The notes: generated by a model not told the origin, from the letters alone. Shown: positions 7,048 to 21,139, counted from the stretch's first letter. The stretch is 64,000 nucleotides of DNA from an uncultured bacterium (GCA_958366945.1 CATXCY010000002.1:66917-130916); one strand, 5' to 3'. A program made the numbers and translations.

Positions 7048-7770
7048 GTGGGTGAACGTTTTTCTGTGGCAGTAGTTACCGATTGGCAAGGAACGGCAGG
7101 CCCGGCTATTTGCAATGCTCTGATCCAGGCCGGTTTTAGTGTCTTGATAAACGGTCCTCAAGACGTGCTTTTCAATATCCCTCCTTCTGACGCTATGGGT
7201 AAAGTGTTGGCTCAGCCTTTCGATACTACCAACGAGCAAGAAGTGCAAGAAACTTTTTTAACTTGCGCCAATCATTTGGGCGGTATTGATGTTTTGGTCA
7301 ATAACAACTACTTTTGGAATGACGCGGCTTTGGGTGACATCACGGAAAAGATGTGGGAAGAAGTAATCAATCGCGGCTTAAAGAGTACCTTCTATTGCAG
7401 CAGAGCGGCTAGCCGTTTTATGAAAGCTCAGGGCTATGGCAAAATTATTAATGTTATAAGTTCATCTGCGTTTAACGGAGTTTATACCCAATTTGCTTCT
7501 GTTTGTGCTGGCATCCATTCTTTAACAAAATCGTTAGCCAAAGAGTTGGCTCCGGAAGTGAGAGTTAATTCTGTGGCTCCCGGCCTTATTGATGAGCCTT
7601 GGATAGACGAGGGAGGCAAAGATCTCAGAGAAATGCTCATTAGAGATATTTTGCTTAAACGTTTGTGCTCCAATGATGATATAGCTGAAGCTGTCAATTA
7701 TTTAGCTTGCGGAGCCGATTTTATGACTGGCCAGATGCTTGTTTTAGACGGTGGAGAGTGCTTGCATTGA
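7048..7770 (+). CDS. Short-chain dehydrogenase/reductase (SDR) fold protein, predicted catalytically degenerate
   Basis: SDR-like throughout (DVLVNN, RVNSVAPGLI, the MTGQMLVLDGG C-terminus). However TGxxxGxG reads TDWQGTAG, NNAG reads NNNY, and the YxxxK position reads FASVC. GTG start. Confidence 0.7.
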   Translation: MGERFSVAVVTDWQGTAGPAICNALIQAGFSVLINGPQDVLFNIPPSDAMGKVLAQPFDTTNEQEVQETFLTCANHLGGIDVLVNNNYFWNDAALGDITEKMWEEVINRGLKSTFYCSRAASRFMKAQGYGKIINVISSSAFNGVYTQFASVCAGIHSLTKSLAKELAPEVRVNSVAPGLIDEPWIDEGGKDLREMLIRDILLKRLCSNDDIAEAVNYLACGADFMTGQMLVLDGGECLH

Positions 7771-7882
7771 TGTTAACTTCGACAGTGCTTTTTTAGCTGT
7801 TTGTTTTGCTAAATGCAAGAATTTAAAGCAATAATCGCCGACAGTTGCTCTATTGGGCGACTGTCTTTACTTGATAAATTTT

Positions 7883-10288
7883 ATGATTAGAAACAATAAT
7901 CCGATTGTCGCAATTTTAAGTTGCTTTATGTCAATAGCGTTGCTTTTTAGCTTAACGCTTTCTGCCAGCGCCGATCCTGGCAACTCTCGGCCAAAATCTG
8001 CTGAAGCTACAGGCGCTTCGGCTGTAGAATTGCACAACTTACGTGAACTCAGTCTGGGCTTTTGTCCGGGGCAGGCACGCGCTGTTTCTTATCGCACTGC
8101 CGCCAGAGTTACAAGTGATGAAGGCATGGTGTTTGGGCCTGGTACAGGTGAAGAAATCGGTCTTTACAATCCCGAAGGCTCAATTTGCTGCAGCCAAGGA
8201 CGCTTTTTTGTTTTTTTAGATAAACATTGGTTGACCAGTACCAATTTGTCTACCGGCAAACAAGTAGCCAAAGTGGCTATAAAGAGTGAAGACGGCCAAA
8301 TTGTTATGGTGCAAGATAGTGTTACTATTTTGCGTCAAGGCGATCTTGTGTCTGCATATCGTCAAGATACTTTACAATTGCTTTGGAAACATGATTTTTC
8401 AGATGATCTGGGATCACTTTCTGAAAATATGGCTTGTTGGCCGAATTATATTTGCCTTGTAGGTCAAGAAAAAGTTGAAGATGGCTCTTTCCGCGCCGCT
8501 CTAATCAGAGTAAGTGATGGCCAAATAGTTTGGCAAAACGTATTTAAAGGCAGCTGTTTGGGGCTAGCTGCTGCAGCAGAAAATGCTTATATAGCTATAG
8601 CTGATGGCAAAACTAAAAATAATAATTCTGTAGGCGTTGCCAAAAATGAGCATATTTTTGCCATCAATTTAGAGCGCAGAGAGATTAACTCTCTGCCTAT
8701 AACTCATTTCGCCCGTTTCTATGCCCACGGCAACCGTTTGTATCTCTTTACTGCCGAGCCATTTGAAACTGAGCTTAACTATAGGCTCTCTACCTATTCT
8801 TCTGCATTACAAAGACTTAATGAATCAGATGGCATAGTTTGTGAGTCTTTGCCTAAGTGGATCGATTTTGGTGACGATAAAGTCAGCATTCTTTGCCATG
8901 TGAGAGTTAGTTTTGGCAGTTGGAATTTCATGACTATTTCTTCCGAGGACGGTGCGCTAAGTTCTTCGGTAGTAGATAATAGAGAAATAGTGCAAGCTAT
9001 ACCTGATAAAGTCGGTACTTGGCTGTTTTTACGTGAAGAAGGAGTTCGCTATCCTGGCTTATTTTTGCTTACCGAAGATAGTTTAGTTCCCGCTGCTGAT
9101 TGCGCTATGGAATTAGCCGACAGCACTTATTTAGGATGCAATTCCGCTATTATTGGCGGTTTGCTGTATGCTTGGGGATTTGAAGATAATAACCAAAATT
9201 TGCAACTTTTTATTTTGGATTTTGACAAAAATTCTAGCTCAATTTGGACAGATAAAAGTATCAAGTCGGCCGATTTAGCTTTATATGGTTTAGCTCCAGC
9301 CATAGTAGAAAAGACCAATGATTGGCTTACCGGTGAAACTTTTAGCACTTTTAAAGTTATTAACCCCACACAAGGTGGCTTTAGCTTTACGTCCGAAAAA
9401 ATTAAAGGCGATTTTTGTAGTAGTGCGATAGGGGAGAAGGAAAATATCTATGTACTTACTTCCCAAGGAGAGTTAAACGCTCTTAGTGCCGATGGGCGCT
9501 TGATTGGCAAACCGGTGGACAATGCCTTTTTTGACTGGACTAAGTGGAACAATTTAGTTGGAGTTCTCTTTTTAACCGGTTGCATTCTATGGTTTATTGT
9601 TCAGGCTAAACGCGGTAAAAAATTATTTATTCGCAAGATTGCCGGTTTAAACGCGTTAGATGAAGCTGTCGGTCGCGCTACCGAAATGGGCAAGCCTGTT
9701 TTATATATTCCCGGCGTTGGCGAAATAGACGATACACAAACTATGGCTGCTCTATCTGTTTTGGGCCATGTTAGTAGCTGCACTGCTGAATATGATTGCC
9801 CTATTATGGTGCCCAATTGCAGTCCAGTGGTTATGTCCATGGCTCAAGACGCTGTCAGTCAAGCTTACTTAAAAGCCGGTAGGCCAGATTCATATGTGAG
9901 CGACTACATATGTTACCTGTCCGGTGAGCAATTCGGCTTTGCGGCTGGAGTTTGCGGTTTAATGGTGCGTGAAAAACCGGCGGCTGTTCTCTATATGGGT
10001 ACCTTCTTGGCTGAAGCTCTTATGTTAGCCGAGACGGGTAATTCTACAGGCGCTATTCAAATAGCCGGTACGGCCAGCGCTTCGCAATTGCCTTTCTTCG
10101 TGGCCGCTTGCGATTATACGCTTATCGGTGAAGAATTATATGCCGCTTCGGCTTACTTGTCAGATGATCCCATGCAAATAGGCTCTCTCAAAGGCCAAGA
10201 TGCTGCTAAGGCTTTAATTATGGCTTTAATTATTGTAGGGGTTATTTGTTTAAGCTTAGGTTGCGATTGGATAAATTGTTTGTGGTAG
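7883..10288 (+). CDS. Signal peptide + periplasmic PQQ/BamB-like beta-propeller + TM + conserved C-terminal domain, function unknown
   Basis: The ORF opens at 7853 (TTG); the ATG at 7883 gives MIRNNNPIVAILSCFMSIALLFSLTLSASA/DPG. Repeated xGxxxWxxxF strands are present (LLWKHDF, IVWQNVF). A TM lies near aa 570, followed by a ~220-aa domain ending in another TM. Confidence 0.6.
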   Translation: MIRNNNPIVAILSCFMSIALLFSLTLSASADPGNSRPKSAEATGASAVELHNLRELSLGFCPGQARAVSYRTAARVTSDEGMVFGPGTGEEIGLYNPEGSICCSQGRFFVFLDKHWLTSTNLSTGKQVAKVAIKSEDGQIVMVQDSVTILRQGDLVSAYRQDTLQLLWKHDFSDDLGSLSENMACWPNYICLVGQEKVEDGSFRAALIRVSDGQIVWQNVFKGSCLGLAAAAENAYIAIADGKTKNNNSVGVAKNEHIFAINLERREINSLPITHFARFYAHGNRLYLFTAEPFETELNYRLSTYSSALQRLNESDGIVCESLPKWIDFGDDKVSILCHVRVSFGSWNFMTISSEDGALSSSVVDNREIVQAIPDKVGTWLFLREEGVRYPGLFLLTEDSLVPAADCAMELADSTYLGCNSAIIGGLLYAWGFEDNNQNLQLFILDFDKNSSSIWTDKSIKSADLALYGLAPAIVEKTNDWLTGETFSTFKVINPTQGGFSFTSEKIKGDFCSSAIGEKENIYVLTSQGELNALSADGRLIGKPVDNAFFDWTKWNNLVGVLFLTGCILWFIVQAKRGKKLFIRKIAGLNALDEAVGRATEMGKPVLYIPGVGEIDDTQTMAALSVLGHVSSCTAEYDCPIMVPNCSPVVMSMAQDAVSQAYLKAGRPDSYVSDYICYLSGEQFGFAAGVCGLMVREKPAAVLYMGTFLAEALMLAETGNSTGAIQIAGTASASQLPFFVAACDYTLIGEELYAASAYLSDDPMQIGSLKGQDAAKALIMALIIVGVICLSLGCDWINCLW

Positions 10289-10327
10289 TTTTGTTTTTAA
10301 GAGTTATTTATGTGCAGAGGTTAAGTT

Positions 10328-10990
10328 ATGAAGCGTGAGATTCCTTTGCTGATTACTTCCATAGCCGGCTTGGTTATGATTGTGCAATTTTATACTTACC
10401 CACTCAATTGGTTGGGCGATCTATTCAATGATTTTTACAATATCATTTTGACTTTCGCTTTTGTGTTGGGGGCTTTAAGTCTTTTTGCCGTCAATGGCAA
10501 AAAAATACTCAGTCAGACTCCGGGATGGGGCTACAACTTAGTATTGCTTATTTCCTTGGTGGTAACTCTAGTTTGCGGATTATTTTTAGCTCCCCAAGGT
10601 AAGTTGCCTACCGATGAGGGGACAGCTTTTAGTTGGATCTTTGACAATATCTTTACTCCTTTGTCGGCAGCTACTTATAGCTTGTTGGCTTTTTATATAG
10701 CGTCAGCTTCTTTTAGAGCTTTTAGGGCGCGATCTTGGGAAGCTACCTTACTTCTGGTAACTGCTTTTATAGTTATGCTTTTTAGGGTGCCTTTGGGAGA
10801 GCACTTGTGGCACGCTTTGCCTATTGTCGGACAGTATGATATTGCCAAATTTATTGAAGATTGGCTGATGGGAGCTTTTAACGCGGCTGGCCAAAGAGCT
10901 ATTCTTTTAGGAGCTTCGGTCGGTTTAATTTCTGTATCATTAAAAATACTTTTGGGCATTGAACGCTCTTACTTGGGAGGCTCCGACTAA
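10328..10990 (+). CDS. Integral membrane protein, function unknown
   Basis: 220 aa with about 6 hydrophobic spans. Its stop overlaps the next start (TAATG at 10988-10992). Confidence 0.6.
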   Translation: MKREIPLLITSIAGLVMIVQFYTYPLNWLGDLFNDFYNIILTFAFVLGALSLFAVNGKKILSQTPGWGYNLVLLISLVVTLVCGLFLAPQGKLPTDEGTAFSWIFDNIFTPLSAATYSLLAFYIASASFRAFRARSWEATLLLVTAFIVMLFRVPLGEHLWHALPIVGQYDIAKFIEDWLMGAFNAAGQRAILLGASVGLISVSLKILLGIERSYLGGSD

Positions 10991-11829
10991 TGTTAGCCAA
11001 ATTGGCCCATTTGGATAGGCGTTGGATCTTTTTAGCTTTGGCTCTGTCCGTGGTTATACCTTTGCTTTGGCCGCCGGAATTGCCGGTTGAGCCCAGTCCT
11101 TTAAGCAAGAAATTTTACAATACTGTAGAGCAATTGCCAGAAGGCTCTTACGTCTGTTTGTCCTTTGATTATGGGCCGGGTACCAAAGTTGAGTGCCATC
11201 CTATGGCTGTAGCTATGTTGCACCACCTTTTCCGTCGCCAATGTAAAGTTGTCTGTATCGCTTTATGGCCTGAAGGTAGCTTGTTTGCTAGAGAAGCTTT
11301 GCAACAAGTGGCTCCTCAATACAATGCCCAAGACGGAATTGATTACGTAAATTTAGGCTATAAAAATGGTGGCGAAGTTGTGTTAAGAGCTATGGGCGAA
11401 AGCTTTAGTTCTATGTTTCCGGCCGATTTGGCTGGTCGACCTACCGAGAGCCTACCTATTATGCAAGAAGTTAAGGGCTGGGAAAGTTTCGCTCTGGTTT
11501 GTGATTGGTCTATGGGAAGACCCGGTTTAGCTGAATTTGTGCGTGTAGTTGTAGGACAATACCATCGTCCTTTGCTTTCTGGCACTACTGCTGTAACTAC
11601 TCCAGAAGCTTATCCATTTCTAAACTCCGGTCAGGTAATCGGCCTTTTGGGCGGTTTGCGTGGAGCCAGCGAATATGAAGTTTTGATAGGCTTAAAAGGC
11701 GGTCAGGCTACTAGAGGTATTGACGCTCAATCAATAGCCCATTTCTTCGTGGCTTTTTTAATCATTTTGGCCAATGTTATTTACTTTTCTGAACGTTGGG
11801 CCGACAAAAATAACGGCAAAAAGCTGTAG
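10990..11829 (+). CDS. Bitopic membrane protein (N- and C-terminal TM), distantly similar to the C-terminal domain of the 7883-10288 product
   Basis: 279 aa. By-eye similarity to the upstream protein: GSYVCLSFDYGPG...HPMAVAMLHHL vs GKPVLYIPGVGE...QTMAALSVLGHV, and LLSGTTAVTTPEAYPF vs QIAGTASASQLPFF. Translationally coupled to the previous gene. Confidence 0.6.
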   Translation: MLAKLAHLDRRWIFLALALSVVIPLLWPPELPVEPSPLSKKFYNTVEQLPEGSYVCLSFDYGPGTKVECHPMAVAMLHHLFRRQCKVVCIALWPEGSLFAREALQQVAPQYNAQDGIDYVNLGYKNGGEVVLRAMGESFSSMFPADLAGRPTESLPIMQEVKGWESFALVCDWSMGRPGLAEFVRVVVGQYHRPLLSGTTAVTTPEAYPFLNSGQVIGLLGGLRGASEYEVLIGLKGGQATRGIDAQSIAHFFVAFLIILANVIYFSERWADKNNGKKL

Positions 11830-11847
11830 AGAGGCTGAAAAATAGAA

Positions 11848-12495
11848 ATGGAAGCTCATTCTTTAAGCGATATGGTGGGAATGTGGATAGGCGTTTGCCT
11901 AACCATGTTTATTTTTAGCTTTCTTTACAAAGATAATCCCTTTTATAAGTTGGCAGAGCATATCTTTGTGGGCGTGTCGGCTGGCTATTGGATGTGCATA
12001 GGTTACTGGCAAGTAATTTACCCCAACTTGATTTTAAAATTGCAAGCTGGAGATTGGCGCTACCTCATAGCAGCCGCGTTAAGTATTATGCTTTTGGCGC
12101 GTGTTTGCCCAAAATATGCTTGGCTGAGTCGCTGGCCCCTGGCTTTTATGGTCGGTATTTTTGCTGGTTATAATATCGTTTATACGATGGAAGCTCAGGT
12201 TTTGCGCCAGTTGGAAGCCACAATTGTGCCTCTCTGGGGATGCGCCAGTTGGAAAGCATTTTTTATAAATTTAATTATTGTCACCGGTGTTTTGAGTGGC
12301 CTTATGTATTTTTACTTTTCCAAAGAACATAAGGGAACGCTTTGGGGAAAGACAGCTCAATTCGGTATTGGCGTTTTAATGATTTCCTTTGGAGCAGCTT
12401 TCGGATATACTGTAATGGCCAGAATCTCTCTACTTATAGGCAGAGTTATGTATATACAAGACGTTTGGCAAGCTACTGTGCGCTTTTTTAGTTAA
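11848..12495 (+). CDS. Integral membrane protein, function unknown
   Basis: 215 aa with about 6 hydrophobic spans. Lies 18 nt after the previous gene. Confidence 0.6.
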   Translation: MEAHSLSDMVGMWIGVCLTMFIFSFLYKDNPFYKLAEHIFVGVSAGYWMCIGYWQVIYPNLILKLQAGDWRYLIAAALSIMLLARVCPKYAWLSRWPLAFMVGIFAGYNIVYTMEAQVLRQLEATIVPLWGCASWKAFFINLIIVTGVLSGLMYFYFSKEHKGTLWGKTAQFGIGVLMISFGAAFGYTVMARISLLIGRVMYIQDVWQATVRFFS

Positions 12496-12553
12496 AAATT
12501 CTAGAAGAAACATAAACGAATACCTCGATAGCGAAAGAGAGGGACTGTGAGCT

Positions 12554-13717
12554 ATGGCTAACGATACTCGAAGTAGCACTTCCAATTTTGCCAACGGCAG
12601 GCGAGAGGAAGGAGAATCTTCGCCTGACAGAATGGGCAGCACTCAATTTGAGGTAAGCGACTCCGAGTTGTCGGCGGAAGACTTAGAGGCTGTGTCTTCT
12701 GGGGCTATGTTTTTCGAAACGATTGGCTATAACAGTACGGGCGGTGGTGCTGAAGTTTACAGATTGTTAGGCCAAGTGGTTAGAAAAATTGAAGGCCTGG
12801 GCGATGCTTTTATCTACTTCTTGCGCTGTTTAGTCGTGGCTATTGCTCTAATTTGTGGCTCTTGCTTTTTATATAAAAATTTCTTTTGCGTTACACGTAA
12901 CTATGACCACGATATTTTATGGATCCTGGCAATCTTATTGCTTGCTTCGATAATTTGTCTCTTCTTAAGTGTAACTTTTGCAGCTAGAACGACTTCACAA
13001 AGAGAGCAAATTGCCCAAAGATACAAAGATGGCTATGCTCGTGAAAACTTAACGTATAAAAATATCTCTTCACCTTGTAATTCACTCACTTTAAGTTTCT
13101 ACAATCATGGGCGTTTCCTATTTTCTGTAGCTGCCTATACTCTTGCTTCTGTAGTTTGCATTGGGACTCTTTTAGGCTTTTTATATGTTGGCATTCTATT
13201 TTTTAGCTCTGAATCAGCTGGCGAATTTGTAAGCTTTTTGCCTTATTTGTCAATTATTCTGGTAGTATTGATAATTGCTTTTGTGGTAGTTTGCTGGCAA
13301 AAAACTGTAGTGGGCTATTCTTTAACTTTTGATAAACAAGGTATAAAAGGCGAATATTACTATTGTAACAATACTAAGATGCGCTTTATTGATGCTTATA
13401 CTAACGTCTCTCCCAGTGAAGTTCGCTATTCCGATTTAATTAGAAGTTGTGGAGACTACATTGTGTGGGAAAATTTCCTTTGTTTTTCTTACCATAAAAA
13501 CTGCTTGGTTCTGTGGAAGAGCAATCGGCCTAAATTTAACTTTAGGACTACTATGTTGATACAATTCGATTTCTACCCAAGTATTGAAGAAGATTCAGAC
13601 CCCAGACCTTTAAGGATTTGTGGCACTGAGAATGAAATAAGCGAACTAAGGGATTTTTTATCCAGTTTTATGCCTTGTTTACCTGCATTCGGTCAGGATT
13701 GTCAGGCTATTGTTTAG
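12554..13717 (+). CDS. Membrane protein, 4 TM + C-terminal YcxB/PH-like domain (paralog 1 of 6)
   Basis: Acidic N-terminal tail and 4 hydrophobic spans. C-terminal motifs are LTFDKQGIKGE, IVWENFLCFSYHKNCLVLW and PLRICGTENEISELRDFLSSFMP. Confidence 0.7.
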   Translation: MANDTRSSTSNFANGRREEGESSPDRMGSTQFEVSDSELSAEDLEAVSSGAMFFETIGYNSTGGGAEVYRLLGQVVRKIEGLGDAFIYFLRCLVVAIALICGSCFLYKNFFCVTRNYDHDILWILAILLLASIICLFLSVTFAARTTSQREQIAQRYKDGYARENLTYKNISSPCNSLTLSFYNHGRFLFSVAAYTLASVVCIGTLLGFLYVGILFFSSESAGEFVSFLPYLSIILVVLIIAFVVVCWQKTVVGYSLTFDKQGIKGEYYYCNNTKMRFIDAYTNVSPSEVRYSDLIRSCGDYIVWENFLCFSYHKNCLVLWKSNRPKFNFRTTMLIQFDFYPSIEEDSDPRPLRICGTENEISELRDFLSSFMPCLPAFGQDCQAIV

Positions 13718-13756
13718 CTTTTTGCTCTATTGAGAAATCGAAGGAGGACCGACACT

Positions 13757-14809
13757 ATGAGTGACTATTTCCATGATGATGAATTGGAAGAACTCGAGCG
13801 ACAAGACGACGGTATAGATCCTTTTGAAGGTGTAAGCGAAGAGGAAAAACGGAAAGTTCTTCTTACGATAGAGCAGATGATGTTCAGTGATACTTCGCTC
13901 TATTGTTTGCGTGGTGCAGCTGTATTGCTAGATATTTTGATTTTTACTTGGGTATTTAACTCAGTAGGCGCTGCTGGTGGTTGCAAAGGTGTTGGCCCTA
14001 TGGGGGCGCTTTATCTTCTGGCTATAGTTTTTTGTTGCCTGGTCTCTTGTACAGCCTTTGAATTGAAAAATTGTAAGCAGCGAGTCGAAGAACAATTACA
14101 AGCTGAAAAAGAACAAAAAGCTGAAGCTGAATTGCAAAAGCGTTTATCTGGAATCGGCACTTTAACAATTACAGACAAGGTTGCTTCTAAGCGCGTAGCA
14201 GCACGTTTGCTACTTTATGTAGGCTCTATATTCGCTCTTTCGATTATTATATTCGGTTTGGGAATTGGCCTTACCGACAGCTTTGACAGCCTCATGCGTG
14301 ATATATGTGCCCCTGGATGGAAAAATTTCTTTGTGTTCCCTGTATCTATGGCTGTATTTATGTCCATGGGGCCGATTTGTTTAGTTGTATTCGCTTGGCA
14401 AGGATCATGTTTAACTTTCAATAAATCTGGTATTAGCGGCGAAGTCTACAACGCTTTTCAAAAGGCTGAAAATGTAATTGACTATTGTGCCGAAAAAAAC
14501 AGAAAAACTGGCCATATTATTAAACGTTACTACGATATAGATATTGAATCCCAACCCAATTGTATAAAATGGACCAATTTTAAATGTTTCTCAGTGCATC
14601 GCAATTGCATAGTGCTTTGGCAAAAAGAACATATGCAAGCCAGTTTTCTGGCTAAATTGTATGTTAAGCTCGGCTGGAATCTTTGCCTCAATCAGTACCC
14701 ATTGAGAATTTTAGGTACGCCTGCTGAACTATCCGAGCTTAAGCATATGCTAGGTCAAATTATACCTAGCTGTTGCAATTTTTTACCTGGAGAAAAAGCC
14801 ATTCTTTAG
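13757..14809 (+). CDS. Membrane protein, 4 TM + C-terminal YcxB/PH-like domain (paralog 2 of 6)
   Basis: The ORF opens at 13730 (TTG). The ATG at 13757 has AAGGAGG (13741-13747) upstream. Motifs are LTFNKSGISGE, IKWTNFKCFSVHRNCIVLW and PLRILGTPAELSELKHML. Confidence 0.7.
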   Translation: MSDYFHDDELEELERQDDGIDPFEGVSEEEKRKVLLTIEQMMFSDTSLYCLRGAAVLLDILIFTWVFNSVGAAGGCKGVGPMGALYLLAIVFCCLVSCTAFELKNCKQRVEEQLQAEKEQKAEAELQKRLSGIGTLTITDKVASKRVAARLLLYVGSIFALSIIIFGLGIGLTDSFDSLMRDICAPGWKNFFVFPVSMAVFMSMGPICLVVFAWQGSCLTFNKSGISGEVYNAFQKAENVIDYCAEKNRKTGHIIKRYYDIDIESQPNCIKWTNFKCFSVHRNCIVLWQKEHMQASFLAKLYVKLGWNLCLNQYPLRILGTPAELSELKHMLGQIIPSCCNFLPGEKAIL

Positions 14810-14933
14810 GAGAAAGAAGTTCGCTAAGCTGCCACAATATAATAAATTGAGGCAAGAACTTAGTGTAAGTAACCGAAAGTTATTGCTAAATGGTGTCAAT
14901 ATCTAATGATTGTCCCTAAGGAGCGCAAAGACT

Positions 14934-15677
14934 ATGAGTGACGATTCCGGCTATCATTATGATTCTTCGGATAACGATGAATTCTCTGGCAGCAGCTTTT
15001 CTGACAATGCTTATGACACAAATCAATCTGTGGTAATAGATTATGAGTTTTCTCTGAAAAGTTTAATGGCTGTTTTGGCTTTTAAAATTGTTTATGCTCT
15101 TCTTTTCTGTATTATATTCGCTCTTATATGGCCATTCTTCTCAGAACATAAAAATGCAGAAGATTCATTCACTTTTTTCTTTTTTCTCAATCTTATTAAC
15201 CCTATGTCCTGGGCAGTGGGGGCTATTATTCCTTGCCCCTTTAGATTTATCAAACAATATCATGTGATATTCTCTTATTATGGTATAAGCGGTAGTGCTG
15301 AGAGTTGGTTGTGTGAAAAGCTTGATTTAGATAAAGCAGTTACACCTACTAGGTATATTCGCAACGGCCCTGAAACCTCTTTGCTTCCTAAATTTACTTT
15401 AAACGAAGTTGTCGATACTAAATATATCTCTTGGGAAAATTTTCACAGTTTTACTTGCCACAAAGATTGTATAATGCTATGGAGAGAAGCTGAGCCGCCC
15501 ATTAAGAAAAAATCTGCTCAATGGGCTGTGCAAACGGGCTTCAGTTTAGATGACACAATTGCTCCGCTGCGTGTTTGTTGTAATGATATAAATGAATTGC
15601 GCAAATTGCGAGATTTTTTAGCTGAGCGTTTACCTGAAGTACATACTAATTATGCTGGATTAAGAGTCATTTTTTAA
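14934..15677 (+). CDS. Membrane protein, 2 TM + C-terminal YcxB/PH-like domain (paralog 3 of 6)
   Basis: The ORF opens at 14910 (TTG). The ATG at 14934 is preceded by AAGGAG. Motifs are YYGISGS, ISWENFHSFTCHKDCIMLW and PLRVCCNDINELRKLRDFLAERLP. Confidence 0.7.
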   Translation: MSDDSGYHYDSSDNDEFSGSSFSDNAYDTNQSVVIDYEFSLKSLMAVLAFKIVYALLFCIIFALIWPFFSEHKNAEDSFTFFFFLNLINPMSWAVGAIIPCPFRFIKQYHVIFSYYGISGSAESWLCEKLDLDKAVTPTRYIRNGPETSLLPKFTLNEVVDTKYISWENFHSFTCHKDCIMLWREAEPPIKKKSAQWAVQTGFSLDDTIAPLRVCCNDINELRKLRDFLAERLPEVHTNYAGLRVIF

Positions 15678-15712
15678 CTAACTGTCGATAAGCATAGTGA
15701 AGAGGAGTTATC

Positions 15713-16378
15713 ATGGAAGATAGTTTTTATCAAGAGTCTGATAGTCTCGATTCTGTAACTGTAAATTGCAAATATAATTATGGAAAGAACTTTGAACTTA
15801 TACTTTTGTGTCTAGTTTTTTCTGTTATTGTTATCACTATTACTGGTGCATATATTTTTGCGATGATGGGAATGTGGAAAGATTTCTTCTATGCGATAGC
15901 CCATCCAATTCAAAGATGGAACGACGTGTGTATGCTCGTCTTCTTATGTGTGCTTCTTTTTGCTACTTCTCTTGTCATTTGCATAAATGGAATTGGCAGT
16001 TATACCTTGGTTTTCGATAATAATGGCATTACTGGAACTTACTCAAATTGGGCTATTAGTAACGGAGATTTCATAGACGCTATAACTGTAAAAAATAGGT
16101 ATACAAGGTATACCATTTTTGATGTTGACTATGTCGAAGGAAATAGATACATCTCTTTAGATAGTTTCAAAAGCTTTTCTCGCTACAAAGATTGTATAAT
16201 ACTCTGGCGCACTAAACATCCTCAGGATACGTTTGGAATGCGTTTTTTCTTGCGTTACAATTCCTGGGGCTTACTTCCTAAGGGCAATTGTCCCTTAAGA
16301 GTTTGCAGTAATGGATCTGATCTGGCTAATTTACAAGATTTTCTGTCTCAGCGTTTGCCGCAAGTTCAGCCTTTGTAA
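15713..16378 (+). CDS. Membrane protein, 2 TM + C-terminal YcxB/PH-like domain (paralog 4 of 6)
   Basis: Motifs are LVFDNNGITGT, ISLDSFKSFSRYKDCIILW and PLRVCSNGSDLANLQDFLSQRLP. GAGGAG lies upstream. Confidence 0.7.
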   Translation: MEDSFYQESDSLDSVTVNCKYNYGKNFELILLCLVFSVIVITITGAYIFAMMGMWKDFFYAIAHPIQRWNDVCMLVFLCVLLFATSLVICINGIGSYTLVFDNNGITGTYSNWAISNGDFIDAITVKNRYTRYTIFDVDYVEGNRYISLDSFKSFSRYKDCIILWRTKHPQDTFGMRFFLRYNSWGLLPKGNCPLRVCSNGSDLANLQDFLSQRLPQVQPL

Positions 16379-16483
16379 GCTCTAGTAAAACATAAGCAGT
16401 TTTAACTTCCTAAGCAGTAATTAAGTTTGCCTCGGTCAAATAAACAAGCTGGAACAATACTAACTTTTTAGTGGAGGCTAGCT

Positions 16484-17251
16484 ATGTTTCAAGAAATTGG
16501 AGATTATCTTAATCGCTACCAGGATGATCTGTATAGAGACAGAGCCACTGAAGTTCCTTATTCGGCTTTAGTTGTCTTTCATAAACAATATTATGGCAAG
16601 GGTTGGACTAAGTTTTTTAATTTTTGTAAACCTATTATAGTTGTGTCTGTAGTTGCAGGTTCCGTCGGTTACGCGTCTATAGTCGGCTGGGGGGTACTTT
16701 TCCATACTTTTACAGCCTGGCAATTAGTTGGAGCTATTTGTGCTTTTATAGCTTGTGTGGCTTTGGGGCTAAGCTTCGGGGATCATAAAGACACGGAGCA
16801 AACTCTCATCTTTACTGATAAAGGTTTAACTGTAGTTATTCCCGGAGATTACAGTAGTCGCGGTTTGACTACCTCGGAAAATATCTTAAAATTCTGCTTC
16901 TCGAGTAGTCGAAAAACTATCCCAGAAAAGGTAGTAAAATATCCTCCTTTTGCTTCCTCTCCGGAAGAAGAGATGGCTTGGAATAATTTCCGCAGCTATT
17001 CTGTTATTCATCACAAAAAGCGGGACAATGTCTCTATAAAATTGTGGCTAGTCGACGATCCTAAGTCGGGAAGCCAAAACGCCCGCCGTTTAAGAGAAAA
17101 ACAGCTTGACTGTGTAGAAATTTATCTGCGCGACGATGGAGGAAGATACACTGGGTATAATGATGAAAAATCTGAGTTGGATGCAACTATAAAATTCTTA
17201 AACGACAGAGTCTCATTGCCTTTGTATTCTGAAGAACAAGTAGAAGATTAG
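16484..17251 (+). CDS. Membrane protein, 2 TM + divergent C-terminal YcxB/PH-like domain (paralog 5 of 6)
   Basis: Motifs are LIFTDKGLTV, MAWNNFRSYSV, IKLW and SELDATIKFLNDRV. GGAGG lies upstream. Confidence 0.6.
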   Translation: MFQEIGDYLNRYQDDLYRDRATEVPYSALVVFHKQYYGKGWTKFFNFCKPIIVVSVVAGSVGYASIVGWGVLFHTFTAWQLVGAICAFIACVALGLSFGDHKDTEQTLIFTDKGLTVVIPGDYSSRGLTTSENILKFCFSSSRKTIPEKVVKYPPFASSPEEEMAWNNFRSYSVIHHKKRDNVSIKLWLVDDPKSGSQNARRLREKQLDCVEIYLRDDGGRYTGYNDEKSELDATIKFLNDRVSLPLYSEEQVED

Positions 17252-17315
17252 GATTTAATTGCTGCGGCAAACGGATGGGGGGCAACAAGCAAAAAGGTAT
17301 ACATGTATTCATTCT

Positions 17316-17342
17316 GAAAAGGGCGCTGGGCGCTTTTTTTAT
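17316..17342 (+). terminator. Possible weak intrinsic terminator/attenuator inside the paralog array
   Basis: In gaaaagggcgctgggcgcttttttt, a GCGC/GCGC stem is extended by G-U and A-U pairs and followed by T7. Confidence 0.4.
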
Positions 17343-17373
17343 TAGAAAATGTAACTGATTAGAGGAAAGAAAA

Positions 17374-17874
17374 TTGAGTAAAAAACATCGTCGGAACGAG
17401 CGTAATCAGGCTAAAAAGAACGAATTGATGCTCCCTTTATCCATTAAGCAGCATCCGGCAGCCAGACGTCCTTGGCTCACTGCAGTGATTGTACTCTTTT
17501 TATTTTTGATGGTCTTTTCTATGTTTAGTTCTAAAGCTGGCTGGAGTGGTTTATTGGTACCGGCTCTTTTGCTGGGCATTATTTTGCATGGTTTGGTTCC
17601 TTATTTTTTCCCCACTACTTTTACTTTCGATAAGGAACAAATAACTGTCAGCCGCTTTGGTAAGCCCTCTATTTTTAAGTGGGATGATTATCGCTCTTAT
17701 TCAGTTCAGGGTAACGGTTTTGTACTGTGGATGGAAATGCATCCAGCTTCCAAAACTTCTTCTTTTTCTGCCTACTTTAAGAGTTTACGCAACTCCGTTT
17801 TTTTGCCTTTAGATGAAGAGGCTATGCAAAAAGTAGAGCCTTTAATTGCTAAAAAATTGGTCAAAACAGAGTAG
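17374..17874 (+). CDS. Membrane protein, 2 TM + minimal YcxB/PH-like domain (paralog 6 of 6)
   Basis: Basic N-terminus and a TM hairpin. Motifs are FTFDKEQITVSRFGKPSIFKWDDYRSYSVQGNGFVLW and VFLPLDEEAMQKVEPLI. TTG start (an in-frame ATG 18 codons later is an alternative). Confidence 0.6.
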   Translation: MSKKHRRNERNQAKKNELMLPLSIKQHPAARRPWLTAVIVLFLFLMVFSMFSSKAGWSGLLVPALLLGIILHGLVPYFFPTTFTFDKEQITVSRFGKPSIFKWDDYRSYSVQGNGFVLWMEMHPASKTSSFSAYFKSLRNSVFLPLDEEAMQKVEPLIAKKLVKTE

Positions 17875-17886
17875 GCAAAGGTTAGT

Positions 17887-18222
17887 ATGAAGATAAATTG
17901 GCGAGAAATGTGGTCTCTGGAGGAACCTTCCAATATAGAAGAAAGCAGAGAAGAAACGGAAAAAGACATTAAAAATATCGCCAGTTCGGTAGTGGCGATC
18001 CATTTGGGCATTCCGGCTTTATGGCTTTTAGAGTCTTGTAAGCCACTATCTTTTATAGCTAACCAAGCTTTGGTCTTTTTCTCTCCGGCGGCTAATTTTG
18101 TAGGACTCGACTCTTGGTGGCGTAAAGCGACGACAATTTCTTCCCGACGTTCCAACGTGGAAGCTTTTATAGAAGCTATCGAGCAATTGGAAATAAAAAA
18201 ACATGAACAAGAAAATAGATAA
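17887..18222 (+). CDS. Small hypothetical protein with a central hydrophobic region
   Basis: 111 aa, starting 12 nt after the previous gene. Its 3' end overlaps the next gene by 20 nt. Hydrophobic segment: VVAIHLGIPALWLLESCKPLSFIANQALVFF. Confidence 0.45.
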   Translation: MKINWREMWSLEEPSNIEESREETEKDIKNIASSVVAIHLGIPALWLLESCKPLSFIANQALVFFSPAANFVGLDSWWRKATTISSRRSNVEAFIEAIEQLEIKKHEQENR

Positions 18223-20005
18223 AGATTCTATCCGTTCTATCTTGGCTACAGATTGTGGCAGCACTACTACCAAAGCCATTTTAATTGAAAAAGGGCCTGA
18301 GGGCTTTCGTTTACGGGCTAGAGGAGAGGCCCCTACTACTGTAGAGGCTCCAGCCGAAGACGTTACTCAAGGTGTGCGCAACGCTATTACTGAGCTTTCT
18401 GAGTTAATTGGGCGTCCTCTTTTAGATGAAAATGGACAACTTATTAAGCCTTACGATGGAAAGCAAGGGGTGGACATTTATCTTTCCACTTCGTCGGCCG
18501 GCGGCGGTTTGCAAATGATGGTAGCTGGTGTAGTAGCCAAAATGAGCTCAGAAAGTGCCCAACGAGCCGCCTTAGGCGCCGGAGCCGTCGTAATGGAAAC
18601 ACTTTCTTCTAACGATTCGCGTCGTCCTTACGAAAAAATTGAGCTTATTCGCAAGCTTCGTCCCGATATGGTTTTGCTTTCTGGTGGCGTTGATGGTGGC
18701 GTGCAAAAACATGTGGTGGAAATGGCCCAACTTTTTAGCGCCGCCGATCCGCGTCCTCGCTTGGGGGTAAACTATAAGCTGCCGGTTATTTTTGCTGGCA
18801 ATAAAGATGTACGCGAGCAAATTAAGAAGATTTTAGGCTCAAAAACAGCTTTAGAAATAGTTGATAATATTCGTCCTACTTTGGAAGAAGAAAATCTTCA
18901 GCCTGCTCGTCTTAAAATTCAGAGTCAATTTTTAGAGCATGTCATGGCCCACGCTCCAGGGTACCCAAAACTTATGGCCATGACAGACGAGCAAATTATG
19001 CCCACGCCGGCAGCTGTGGGAATGATTATGGAGCGGGTGGCCCAAACGCGTTCGATTAACATTTTGGGCGTTGATATCGGCGGCGCCACGACTGACGTGT
19101 TTTCCGTATTCGACGGCCATTTCAATCGTACCGTGTCGGCCAACTACGGTATGAGTTACTCTATTTCCAACGTGGTAGCTGAAGCCGGTTTGAAAAACGT
19201 TATGCGTTGGGTTCCCTTTGATGTAGACGAGCCTCAGTTGCGTAATCGCATCAAAAATAAAATGATTCGTCCGACTTCTATACCTTATCTTATGGAAGAT
19301 TTGGAAATAGAGCAGGCTATCTGTCGCGAGGCTTTGCGTCTTTCCTTTGAACAACACGCTTTGTTGGCCGACGGCTTAAAAGGCGTACAGCACCAGGCTG
19401 AAATAGGCTCAATTTTTAGCCAAGGTGAGAAACGCTCACTTATAGATCCTATGCGTTTAGATATGCTTATCGGCTCCGGCGGCGTACTTTCTCATGCACC
19501 TGAGCGTTGGCAAACGGCTTGGATGTTACTTGATTCATATCTACCTTGCGGCATTACTCAGTTGGCTGTCGATTCTATTTTTATGATGCCGCAACTGGGA
19601 GTGCTTTCTTCTATTTTGCCTGAAGCTGCTGCTTATGTCTTTGAGAAAGATTGTTTAATTGAATTAGGCACTTGTATAGCTCCTCGCTTTACTAACGGTA
19701 AAGCGCTGGCTCCTGGCCAAGATTTGCTTAAAGTTGAGCTTGAAGGTCAAGCGCCTTTCACTTTGCATATGGGAGAAATTAAGGTAAAAAAGTTGCCAGT
19801 AGGGCAAAATATTAAGGCTCGTTTATTCCCTCTAAGTCGCACCGATGTGGGGCGAGGAGCTGAGCAAATTGTAGAGTGTGTGCTTAAAGGCGGTACAACG
19901 GGGTTAATATTTGATGGGCGCGGTCGTGAACCGTTTGTACTTCCTCAGGAACGTTCGGTTCTTATCAACAAACTTCAAGAATGGAAGGCAGCTTTAAAGG
20001 GATAA
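18203..20005 (+). CDS. GlmL/MutL-family (glutamate mutase component L-like) ASKHA actin-fold ATPase
   Basis: Phosphate-1-like ILATDCGSTTTKAILI, SSAGGGLQM, LLSGGVDGG, and a second nucleotide motif ILGVDIGGATTDVF. 600 aa, longer than the clostridial GlmL I remember. Confidence 0.7.
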   Translation: MNKKIDKDSIRSILATDCGSTTTKAILIEKGPEGFRLRARGEAPTTVEAPAEDVTQGVRNAITELSELIGRPLLDENGQLIKPYDGKQGVDIYLSTSSAGGGLQMMVAGVVAKMSSESAQRAALGAGAVVMETLSSNDSRRPYEKIELIRKLRPDMVLLSGGVDGGVQKHVVEMAQLFSAADPRPRLGVNYKLPVIFAGNKDVREQIKKILGSKTALEIVDNIRPTLEEENLQPARLKIQSQFLEHVMAHAPGYPKLMAMTDEQIMPTPAAVGMIMERVAQTRSINILGVDIGGATTDVFSVFDGHFNRTVSANYGMSYSISNVVAEAGLKNVMRWVPFDVDEPQLRNRIKNKMIRPTSIPYLMEDLEIEQAICREALRLSFEQHALLADGLKGVQHQAEIGSIFSQGEKRSLIDPMRLDMLIGSGGVLSHAPERWQTAWMLLDSYLPCGITQLAVDSIFMMPQLGVLSSILPEAAAYVFEKDCLIELGTCIAPRFTNGKALAPGQDLLKVELEGQAPFTLHMGEIKVKKLPVGQNIKARLFPLSRTDVGRGAEQIVECVLKGGTTGLIFDGRGREPFVLPQERSVLINKLQEWKAALKG

Positions 20006-20008
20006 AAT

Positions 20009-21139
20009 ATGAGCAGCGCTTATGTGCCAGGATTAAAAGTTACCGATCATGCAGAATTAAAAATTGAGAGGCGCTTACCGCTTAAGGGCAGCGTTGTGGT
20101 AGCCAAAGGTGATACTGTTAGCTGGAATACGGTTGTGGCCAATACTTTTTTGCCGGGCAGCGTCGAGTTGGTTAATGCTGCGGCCAAACTGGGGATCTCT
20201 CCGGAAGAAGTGCCCCAAGCTATGCTTAAAAGTGAGGGCGACCAAGTATCTAAAGGTGAAACTTTGGCTCGCAGCAAGGGCTTTTGGGGGTTGTTTCGCT
20301 CCAATCTTGCTTCTCCTATTAGCGGCACAGTTGAATCTGTCTCCGAAGTTAGTGGCTTAATCGTTTTGCGGGCGCCTTCTGTACCCGTCGAAATAAATGC
20401 TTATGTCGATGGTATAGTTGAAGATATCCTACCTGAAGAGGGAGTTATTATCAGAACTTCGGCTGTTTATATCCAAGGTATCTTTGGTATAGGCGGTGAG
20501 ACAGCTGGAGAAATTTGCATTTTTACTGAAGATCCCGATGAAGAATTGCAAATCGAGCGTCTTAGTGAAGCTTATAAAGGCAAAATTCTGGTCGGAGGAG
20601 CTTTAGTTACGGCCGATTTCTTGCGTAAAGCTGTGCAATATGGTGTGAAAGCTGTGGTAACTGGTGGCATTTCTGACGCCGATTTAGCCGATTTTTTGGG
20701 TTATGACTTAGGAGTAGCTATTACTGGCTCTGAAGATAAAGGCATTACCTTAATTGTTACTGAGGGCTTTGGCAAGATCGCAATGGCTGAGCGCTCTTTC
20801 AATTTGCTCAAACGCTGTGTCGGCCGTTGGGCTTCCGTTTCCGGAGCTACTCAAATTCGAGCTGGAGTTATTCGTCCAGAAATAATTATTGCTGATAATG
20901 TTGACTCTAAGCCCAGAGAAGAAAAATCCACTGCTGTCTCGTCTGGTTTACATATCGGTTCTAAAGTGCGTCTTATTCGCGAACCTGATTTCGGAAAAAT
21001 AGCTATAGTAGCTGAATTGCCTTCAGAAGCCGAGCTTATCCCCACTGGAGCTAAAGTTCGCGTAGCCAGAGTAAAATTGGACGATGGCCGCTTGCTTTCT
21101 TTGCCCAGAGCTAATTTGGAAATAATTGAAGAAAGTTAA
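20009..21139 (+). CDS. Hypothetical protein with barrel-sandwich-hybrid-like N-terminal motifs and a Rossmann-like middle region
   Basis: Starts 3 nt after the ASKHA gene. KGDTVSWNTVVA and EGDQVSKGETLA resemble lipoyl/biotinyl-type hybrid hairpins. Also GKILVGGA...GVKAVVTGGI and TEGFG. Confidence 0.55.
   Translation: MSSAYVPGLKVTDHAELKIERRLPLKGSVVVAKGDTVSWNTVVANTFLPGSVELVNAAAKLGISPEEVPQAMLKSEGDQVSKGETLARSKGFWGLFRSNLASPISGTVESVSEVSGLIVLRAPSVPVEINAYVDGIVEDILPEEGVIIRTSAVYIQGIFGIGGETAGEICIFTEDPDEELQIERLSEAYKGKILVGGALVTADFLRKAVQYGVKAVVTGGISDADLADFLGYDLGVAITGSEDKGITLIVTEGFGKIAMAERSFNLLKRCVGRWASVSGATQIRAGVIRPEIIIADNVDSKPREEKSTAVSSGLHIGSKVRLIREPDFGKIAIVAELPSEAELIPTGAKVRVARVKLDDGRLLSLPRANLEIIEES

Follow-up and report, generated by a model that had tools for sequence, protein, structure and literature searches.

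Six diverged copies of a small membrane-anchored protein form a tandem array within a widespread, unannotated gene cluster in gut Xenobia

Six consecutive genes that encode similarly built membrane proteins raise the question of how such an array arose and what it does. The array occupies positions 12554-17874 on the + strand of a 64,000-nucleotide stretch of DNA from an uncultured bacterium (GCA_958366945.1 CATXCY010000002.1:66917-130916), called the window here; coordinates are those of the window unless another locus is named. A preliminary description of the window had proposed six + strand paralogs, here p1 to p6, that share one architecture, and translation recovers all six open reading frames (ORFs), consecutive and intact, at the positions it gave. 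By sequence and profile comparison all six genes are homologous, and they are diverged copies of one small membrane-anchored protein. The last gene, p6, is an ancestral and integral component of an unannotated eight-gene cluster that is widespread in many phyla. The other five, upstream of it, are a tandem, lineage-specific expansion of p6 in one sub-lineage of gut Xenobia.

Homology among p1 to p4 is visible in direct BLASTP comparison, with 25-33% identity and E-values from 4e-7 to 1e-21 (p1 against p2, p3 and p4, 1e-21 to 9e-13; p4 against p3, 4e-18). Both p5 and p6 are only marginal in pairwise BLASTP. Profiles enriched with orthologs collected from related genomes were therefore aligned with hhalign, and these link all groups: p1 to p4 match the broad p6 family with a probability of 97.4% (E 1e-11), p5 together with pX (an extra member described below) matches the p6 family with 93.4% (E 2.5e-7), and p1 to p4 match p5 and pX with 87.8% (E 3e-6). 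As controls, the same profiles were aligned to three unrelated proteins of the locus, with probabilities of no more than 1%. The motifs TLTFdkxGI, WxNFxSFS, LW and PL and a C-terminal helix align, in this order, in the six genes and their orthologs. Nucleotide similarity between the paralogs is limited to a single identical stretch of 16 nt, at 15460-15475 and 16185-16200; this stretch had been noticed before, with the second position right and the first placed at 15470-15485. Each paralog forms its own deep orthogroup in a neighbour-joining tree, so the duplications are old, and a recent amplification can be rejected on both grounds.

The six proteins share a plan in which a variable N-terminal tail leads through a short strand into membrane helices and a C-terminal domain that is predicted to be PH-like. 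Acidic tails, four membrane helices and PH-like domains at residues ~251-387 and ~226-359 are found in p1 (12554-13717, +, 387 aa) and p2 (13730-14809, +, 359 aa), respectively. The acidic tail of p3 (14910-15677, +, 255 aa, or probably 248 aa from 14931) precedes two membrane helices and a PH-like domain with a hypervariable insert at residues ~121-160. In p4 (15713-16378, +, 221 aa) a short strand (beta0) comes before two membrane helices and the PH-like domain, and p5 (16484-17251, +, 255 aa) has two membrane helices and a divergent PH-like domain. The product of p6 (17374-17874, +, 166 aa), a small inner-membrane protein, consists of a K/R-rich tail, an HPAA motif, beta0, two membrane helices and a minimal PH-like domain. 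The intergenic gaps from p1 to p6 are, in order, 12, 100, 35, 105 and 122 nt. A hydropathy scan agrees with the helix numbers first proposed (four in p1 and p2, two in p3 to p6), and the acidic tails that had been reported for p1 to p3 are present in the translations. The loops between helices are short and poor in K and R, whereas both residues abound in the p6 tail and in the central loop of p1 and of p2; because of this positive-inside pattern, the C-terminal domain, roughly 90-140 aa across the six, is most likely cytoplasmic. The part of each hairpin predicted to lie outside the cell is just 9-22 residues.

The origin of the array can be traced through its last gene, which is followed on the same strand by three genes of the cluster. 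These encode a small protein (s, 17887-18222, 111 aa with hydrophobic segments), a MutL/GlmL-like actin-fold (ASKHA) ATPase (MutL, 18203-20005, 600 aa; Pfam PF13941, E 1e-122), whose start overlaps the small gene by 20 nt, and a protein with an RnfC_N or biotin-lipoyl-like barrel-sandwich hybrid domain (R, 20009-21139, 376 aa). Upstream of the array, also on the + strand, lie the gene for a DUF6754 protein (D, 7853-10288, exact start uncertain; Pfam PF20539, E 5e-116) and three genes for membrane proteins without family match, mem1 (10328-10990), mem2 (10990-11829) and mem3 (11848-12495), or m1 to m3 for short. The array is thus physically linked to both flanking modules, as had been claimed. 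In a survey of 80 loci with a MutL-like ATPase, a hidden Markov model (HMM) of the small protein matches in 54, mostly directly upstream of the MutL-like gene; R is downstream of MutL in 56; and DUF6754, m1, m2 and m3 each occur in 32-34. An HMM of p6 alone detects a single ORF directly upstream of the small and MutL genes in 29 of the 80 loci (E 1e-17 to 6e-3, with ~1e4 ORFs searched), among them loci of Zixibacteria, Eisenbacteria, Latescibacteria, Deltaproteobacteria, Gemmatimonadetes, Dormiibacterota and Planctomycetota.

The p6-like ORFs of other phyla are about 117-290 aa long (mostly 135-200 aa) and, in the subset subjected to a hydropathy scan, contain one or two hydrophobic helices. 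Motifs conserved across phyla are HPa ahead of the hairpin, LPT.Y following it, and W..F, GV.L and RG. The commonest gene order is p6-s-MutL-R-D-m1-m2-m3, in 15 loci and in partial versions. In Xenobia the order is permuted to D-m1-m2-m3-p6-s-MutL-R, which places p6 between the membrane genes and the ATPase genes. In relatives outside the expanded clade this order is found with one copy (L017, L018, L023), or p6-s-MutL-R occurs by itself (L008). In the window p6 is directly upstream of small and MutL and is homologous to the p6-like genes of other phyla, and p1 to p5 belong to the cluster only via their homology to p6. An exhaustive HMMER search of 1.84 billion representative proteins with a mixed profile of all six paralogs gave only 18 matches at E<=1e-3, from close relatives only. 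The mixed profile is too blurred for other phyla, which the p6-only profile reached in a small, context-selected database.

The closest genomes are metagenome-assembled genomes (MAGs) from human gut (Hadza), baboon and rumen, labelled UBP9, 'Candidatus Bruticola' or Eremiobacteraeota; NCBI taxonomy places Bruticola in Vulcanimicrobiota, class Xenobia. Linkage and copy number in these relatives bear out the view of p6 as the founder. The window and L011 carry p1 to p6, and L001 and L002 carry p1 to p6 and a second p4 (p4b), seven copies in all. L003 has p1, p2, p4, pX, p5 and p6, and L004 has p2, p4, pX, p5 and p6, p3 being absent from both. Bruticola (L005/L006) retains a four-helix copy, a p5-like copy and p6, and the more distant Xenobia (L008, L017, L018, L023) have p6 only. 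Expanded gut Xenobia (Eremiobacterota) therefore carry 3-7 copies altogether, and more than one copy of the p6 family was never found outside Xenobia among the 80 loci. The extra member pX, absent from the window, lies between p4 and p5 (L003 7357-8244, L004 7431-8333), is divergent, and follows the same hairpin-plus-domain plan in 295-300 aa with a long low-complexity C-terminal tail rich in Ser, Arg and Asn. The orthogroups of p1, p2, p4 and p5 persist across several species, and p1, p3, p4b and pX are present or absent between close relatives.

One of these loci, L002 (CAAGRW010000192.1), is from a human-gut MAG labelled 'Candidatus Riflebacteria'. Its proteins are nearly identical to those of L001, from a Hadza gut MAG, and the locus follows the gene order of others that carry the labels UBP9, Bruticola or Eremiobacteraeota. 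Since relatives are placed in Vulcanimicrobiota, class Xenobia, 'Riflebacteria' is probably a mislabel.

Comparison of the window with four relatives separates p6 from the rest of the array also in its rate of change. The ratio of nonsynonymous to synonymous substitution rates (dN/dS, or omega) is 0.03-0.04 for p6, 0.01-0.09 for the flanking genes and p6 together, and 0.12-0.35 for p1 to p5, which is 5-10 times that of p6. A value of 0.47 for p5 against L003 is unreliable, since dS there is only 0.025. At the protein level the flanks are 96-98% identical to L001, but p6 only 93%, p5 81% and p1 to p4 57-71%; orthologs of p1 in L001, L003 and L011 are 48-77% identical and those of p2 51-67%. In p1 to p4 the membrane hairpins are the most divergent parts (25-50% identity, omega 0.3-0.66), and the p3 insert and a loop in p1 come close to neutral evolution. 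Between the window and L011 the WxNFxSFSxHKxCxxLW core shows 97-100% conservation. The preliminary description had regarded p5 and p6 as the divergent copies. They do keep the core, but p6 is the conserved ancestral component, and only p1 to p5 make up the fast-evolving expansion.

These rates bear on whether the extra copies matter at all. Were p1 to p5 largely redundant duplicates drifting under relaxed constraint, with neutral birth-and-death behind the changes in copy number, their raised dN/dS, the local windows near omega ~1, the loss of p6's conserved N-terminal motif and the coming and going of p1, p3, p4b and pX between close species would all fit. However, every copy is intact in all genomes examined despite synonymous divergence near or beyond saturation (dS 0.5-2.3; about 0.4-2.3 over the ORFs compared). 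Overall omega stays well within the constrained range given above, the domain core is almost unchanged between the window and L011, and four of the orthogroups persist across several species, where neutral copies would have decayed. We regard drift of redundant copies as quite unlikely. The comparisons support the earlier proposal of old duplications whose copies are kept under purifying selection. No window convincingly exceeds an omega of 1; the sliding-window peak of 1.39 spans just 30 codons and is not significant.

The history of the block is not uniform along the locus. Compared with L003 the window is a mosaic in which mem2, mem3 and p5 (10990-12495 and 16484-17251) are nearly identical (dS 0.005-0.05) and neighbouring genes have dS of 0.5-2.3. 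In the same comparison identity is only 48-52% for p1, p2 and p4 (dS 1-2.3), against 94-100% for the flanking genes. This pattern of synonymous divergence indicates recent recombination between species around a variable p1-p4 cassette. A second variable region is found in the DUF6754 protein, whose N-terminal extracytoplasmic part (7853-9500) shows 56-76% identity and dN/dS 0.22-0.27, against 93-98% and 0.02-0.03 for its C-terminal domain. Other phyla have a shorter N-terminal part, and the annotation of some proteins that carry it names a fibronectin type III domain.

Immunity islands typically contain small membrane proteins in diversified tandem sets, and an immunity-like function was among the options first suggested for the array. 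The copies would then serve in immunity, as receptors or against phages, and conflict with toxins, phages or the host would maintain their polymorphism. Strain variation of the p1-p4 cassette, with synonymous divergence above background between conserved flanks, is the kind of pattern that this would produce, and the variable extracytoplasmic part of the neighbouring DUF6754 protein agrees with it. However, PADLOC finds nothing in the six proteins or in four neighbours, Pfam and NCBIfam reveal no toxin, nuclease, secretion or defence gene nearby, and no matches to viral folds were obtained. The founder of the array is conserved as a single-copy part of a housekeeping-like cluster, no window has omega significantly above 1, and the predicted topology leaves very little of each hairpin outside and the domain in the cytoplasm. 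An immunity or receptor function is on this evidence highly improbable.

Structure prediction provides a view of the conserved domain itself. AlphaFold2 models of p4 (m52b512eda6de) and p6 (m9861077f11a7), with mean predicted confidence (pLDDT) of 81.8 and 82.0, contain the same elements in the same order: a short strand, two long membrane helices, 5-6 strands, a short helix, a strand and a C-terminal helix. The p4 model has an insert after the second strand. The strand beta0, before the first membrane helix, is modelled with confidence at residues 14-20 of p4 and 22-26 of p6. With its 7 strands and terminal helix, the p6 model resembles the PH-like superfold, and its top 50 Foldseek matches in the PDB are almost all PH, PTB, FERM-F3 or EROS structures, with probabilities up to 1.0 and E-values of only 0.014-0.6. 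These include Rtt106, FACT Spt16/Pob3/SSRP1, the PTPN21 FERM domain, PTB domains, the Sin1 PH domain and EROS. The p4 model has no significant match in the PDB; the best is the C-terminal domain of TBC1D23 (E 0.14), presumably a PH fold, and EROS is second. Foldseek comparison of p6 with viral structures gave nothing meaningful. The hairpin followed by a small beta-rich, PH-like domain that had been foreseen is therefore supported at the level of the fold, mainly by p6 and by predicted models.

EROS (CYBC1, 8kei chain D), a chaperone of NOX2, is the sole full-length structural match to p6 (169 columns, TM-score 0.40/0.41). Two membrane helices interrupt the PH domain of EROS, an arrangement that the models here may share, and EROS binds its client, a membrane protein, through hairpin and PH domain alike (PMC11161758). 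It is conceivable, though unlikely, that the array encodes client-specific assembly chaperones of the EROS/Ycf4 type, in which hairpin and PH-like domain would together hold a nascent polytopic subunit (D, m1 to m3 or other clients) and expansion would supply chaperones for different clients. The fast evolution of the p1-p4 hairpins would fit a series of changing intramembrane partners. However, a TM-score of 0.40 is below the usual level for a shared fold, EROS is eukaryotic and without detectable sequence similarity to p6, and neither Ycf4 nor EROS is among the 25 Pfam families most often matched when 23 members of the family were scanned. In other phyla p6 adjoins the small protein and the ATPase, not the membrane genes. 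Nothing in these data separates a transient chaperone from a stable adaptor.

Two membrane helices followed directly by a small cytoplasmic beta-rich domain that ends in a helix, as found by hydropathy and in the models of p4 and p6, are the architecture of YcxB-like and bPH_2-type proteins, and the preliminary description had associated the array with YcxB (PF14317) or bacterial PH (bPH) families. Membership of YcxB or of any curated bPH family is not supported by sequence. Searches of Pfam, NCBIfam and PADLOC with the six proteins, and of Pfam with the distant orthologs scanned, found nothing above threshold. YcxB, with a gathering score of 23.3 bits, has no match at E<=1 among the six window proteins and is not one of the 25 most often matched of the 36 Pfam families obtained from the 23 members at E<=10; its best score is 13.8 bits (E 0.05), in one distant ortholog (L065). 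The only Pfam bacterial PH family to appear is bPH_7, with one member matching at E 0.068 and a single distant ortholog at E 0.023, both below its cut-off of 25 bits. The commonest sub-threshold match is DUF6585 (PF20226), in 8 of the 23 members with a best E of 9e-5. In p6 this match (E 0.0027; 17.6 bits against a gathering score of 27.7) spans the pre-hairpin segment, both helices and the first strands, so that the membrane helices may drive it, and DUF6585 is itself uncharacterised. PDB sequence searches with the p6 profile (E<=10), the ATPase and R gave no matches.

The fold and the hairpin-plus-PH architecture are of kinds already known. Bacterial PH families whose members have two membrane helices at the N terminus and the PH domain in the cytoplasm have been described, and bacterial PH domains can form oligomers (PMC2817789). 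The bPH_2/DUF1200 (YdbS/YdbT type), DUF2244 and YcxB-like (PF14317) families resemble the array proteins in combining a two-helix N-terminal hairpin, a cytoplasmic PH-like sandwich and a C-terminal helix, and function is unassigned there as here. Unlike these families, the array family has a strand and the HPAA motif before the hairpin and is tied to a specific eight-gene cluster. We know of no tandem arrays of 3-7 diverged copies in any of the three. Curated libraries do not include the array family, and its pan-phylum link to the cluster and its tandem diversification within a single gut lineage were absent from the libraries and literature searched.

The likeliest role, which we put forward tentatively, is that p1 to p6 are diversified membrane adaptors for the machine encoded by the cluster. 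In this scheme p6 would be an adaptor embedded in the inner membrane, with its PH-like domain in the cytoplasm, the same compartment where the ATPase is expected. The PH-like domain, perhaps with the HPAA tail, would dock the soluble ATPase/R pair onto the membrane subunits. Since p1 to p5 keep the PH-like core but have diverged in their membrane hairpins, in the tails (acidic in p1 to p3) and in the loop insert, they could provide alternative or additional adaptors, perhaps joined in mixed oligomers. Paralogous adaptors might then couple one machine to different membrane partners or conditions.

Several observations weigh against this adaptor role. It is drawn from architecture and gene order only, and p6-like genes occur in just 29 of the 80 MutL loci; in the remaining loci the machine may work without p6, or p6 may be too divergent to detect. 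Across phyla p6 keeps the HPAA motif, but p1 to p5 have lost it and may therefore no longer bind the partner of p6. The strain-variable, cassette-like behaviour of p1 to p4 is not predicted by a simple housekeeping adaptor. On the structural side, the Foldseek E-values are weak (at least 0.014 for p6, and no significant match for p4), and pairing of beta0 with the PH-like sandwich may be regarded as a candidate feature only.

A broader and rather improbable extension of the adaptor role would make the cluster an undescribed membrane machine driven by the actin-fold ATPase, whose PH-like specificity or adaptor subunit has, in gut Xenobia, been multiplied into a strain-variable cassette; this cassette would be exchanged by recombination along with the outward part of the DUF6754 protein and kept up by diversifying selection from phages, competitors or the host. 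If true, the cassette would be a programmable front end on an otherwise invariant engine. The array establishes a protein family that Pfam, NCBIfam and the PDB do not contain, and links it to a cluster whose ATPase, ~60% identical across >15 phyla, has no assigned role. As a natural experiment, the expansion in gut Xenobia marks the PH-like membrane protein as the modular and evolvable part. Partners specific to individual paralogs would give an experimental handle on the conserved cluster, and the family adds to the sparse functional context for bacterial PH-like domains.

The remaining proteins of the cluster provide limited guidance to its function. The 600-aa ATPase belongs to the same Pfam family (MutL, PF13941) as the GlmL/MutL accessory proteins of B12-dependent mutases, which are mentioned for context only. 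However, its score of 229 bits is far short of the NCBIfam GlmL equivalog cut-offs (475 bits), there is no adjacent mutase gene, and it lies in a membrane-protein cluster. The DUF6754 domain is ~60% identical across many phyla, always with the three membrane-protein genes downstream, and the N-terminal extracytoplasmic part of D has a weak match to a beta-propeller family. The Pfam match of R is weak in the window and above the gathering score in its ortholog in L064. Literature searches returned no papers on DUF6754 or PF13941, and a search on GlmL/ASKHA gave nothing relevant.

The cluster is conserved in >15 phyla, and examples apart from the window (7853-21139) are found in L030 (4194-11350), L064 and L023. 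In mutually unrelated phyla (Desulfuromonas, WOR-3 and Eisenbacteria) a GDC-P/GcvP2_C gene, for a subunit of the glycine-cleavage P-protein, lies directly upstream of the cluster (L060 3151-4587, L037 3283-4713, L079 2774-4216 and L030 1535-4207). This neighbour may be a functional hint, because R has a lipoyl/biotinyl-like barrel domain. The rumen MAG RUG807 has p6 and small followed by a divergent GlmL-like protein of 460 aa (29% identity) in L018 (7793-10157). On another contig of the same MAG (L007, 2894-4702) there is a close ortholog (80%) of the 600-aa MutL, without p6 or membrane genes.

Within the window, neither tRNA genes nor Rfam matches at gathering score are found in the whole 64 kb, and promoter matches are no commoner than in shuffled sequence. 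Terminator-like matches are somewhat more frequent (28, against 17.8 with a standard deviation of 4.4 in shuffled sequence), with none in the intergenic gaps of the array. Outside these gaps, a hairpin with an 11-bp stem followed by a T-rich tract at 7840-7865 overlaps the TTG start listed for DUF6754 (7853). This hairpin may act as terminator of the SDR gene that lies upstream (7048-7770); DUF6754 would then begin further downstream. The TTG starts listed for p2 (13730) and p3 (14910) are likewise probably too early, by 7-9 codons. For p2 the true start may be an ATG 27 nt downstream of the listed one. For p3 the start is probably at 14931, because the ortholog P0025 begins at MSNDSG, which matches an internal ATG (MSxDSG) at that position. 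In L001 p1 and p2 overlap by 4 nt, which suggests translational coupling of the two genes.

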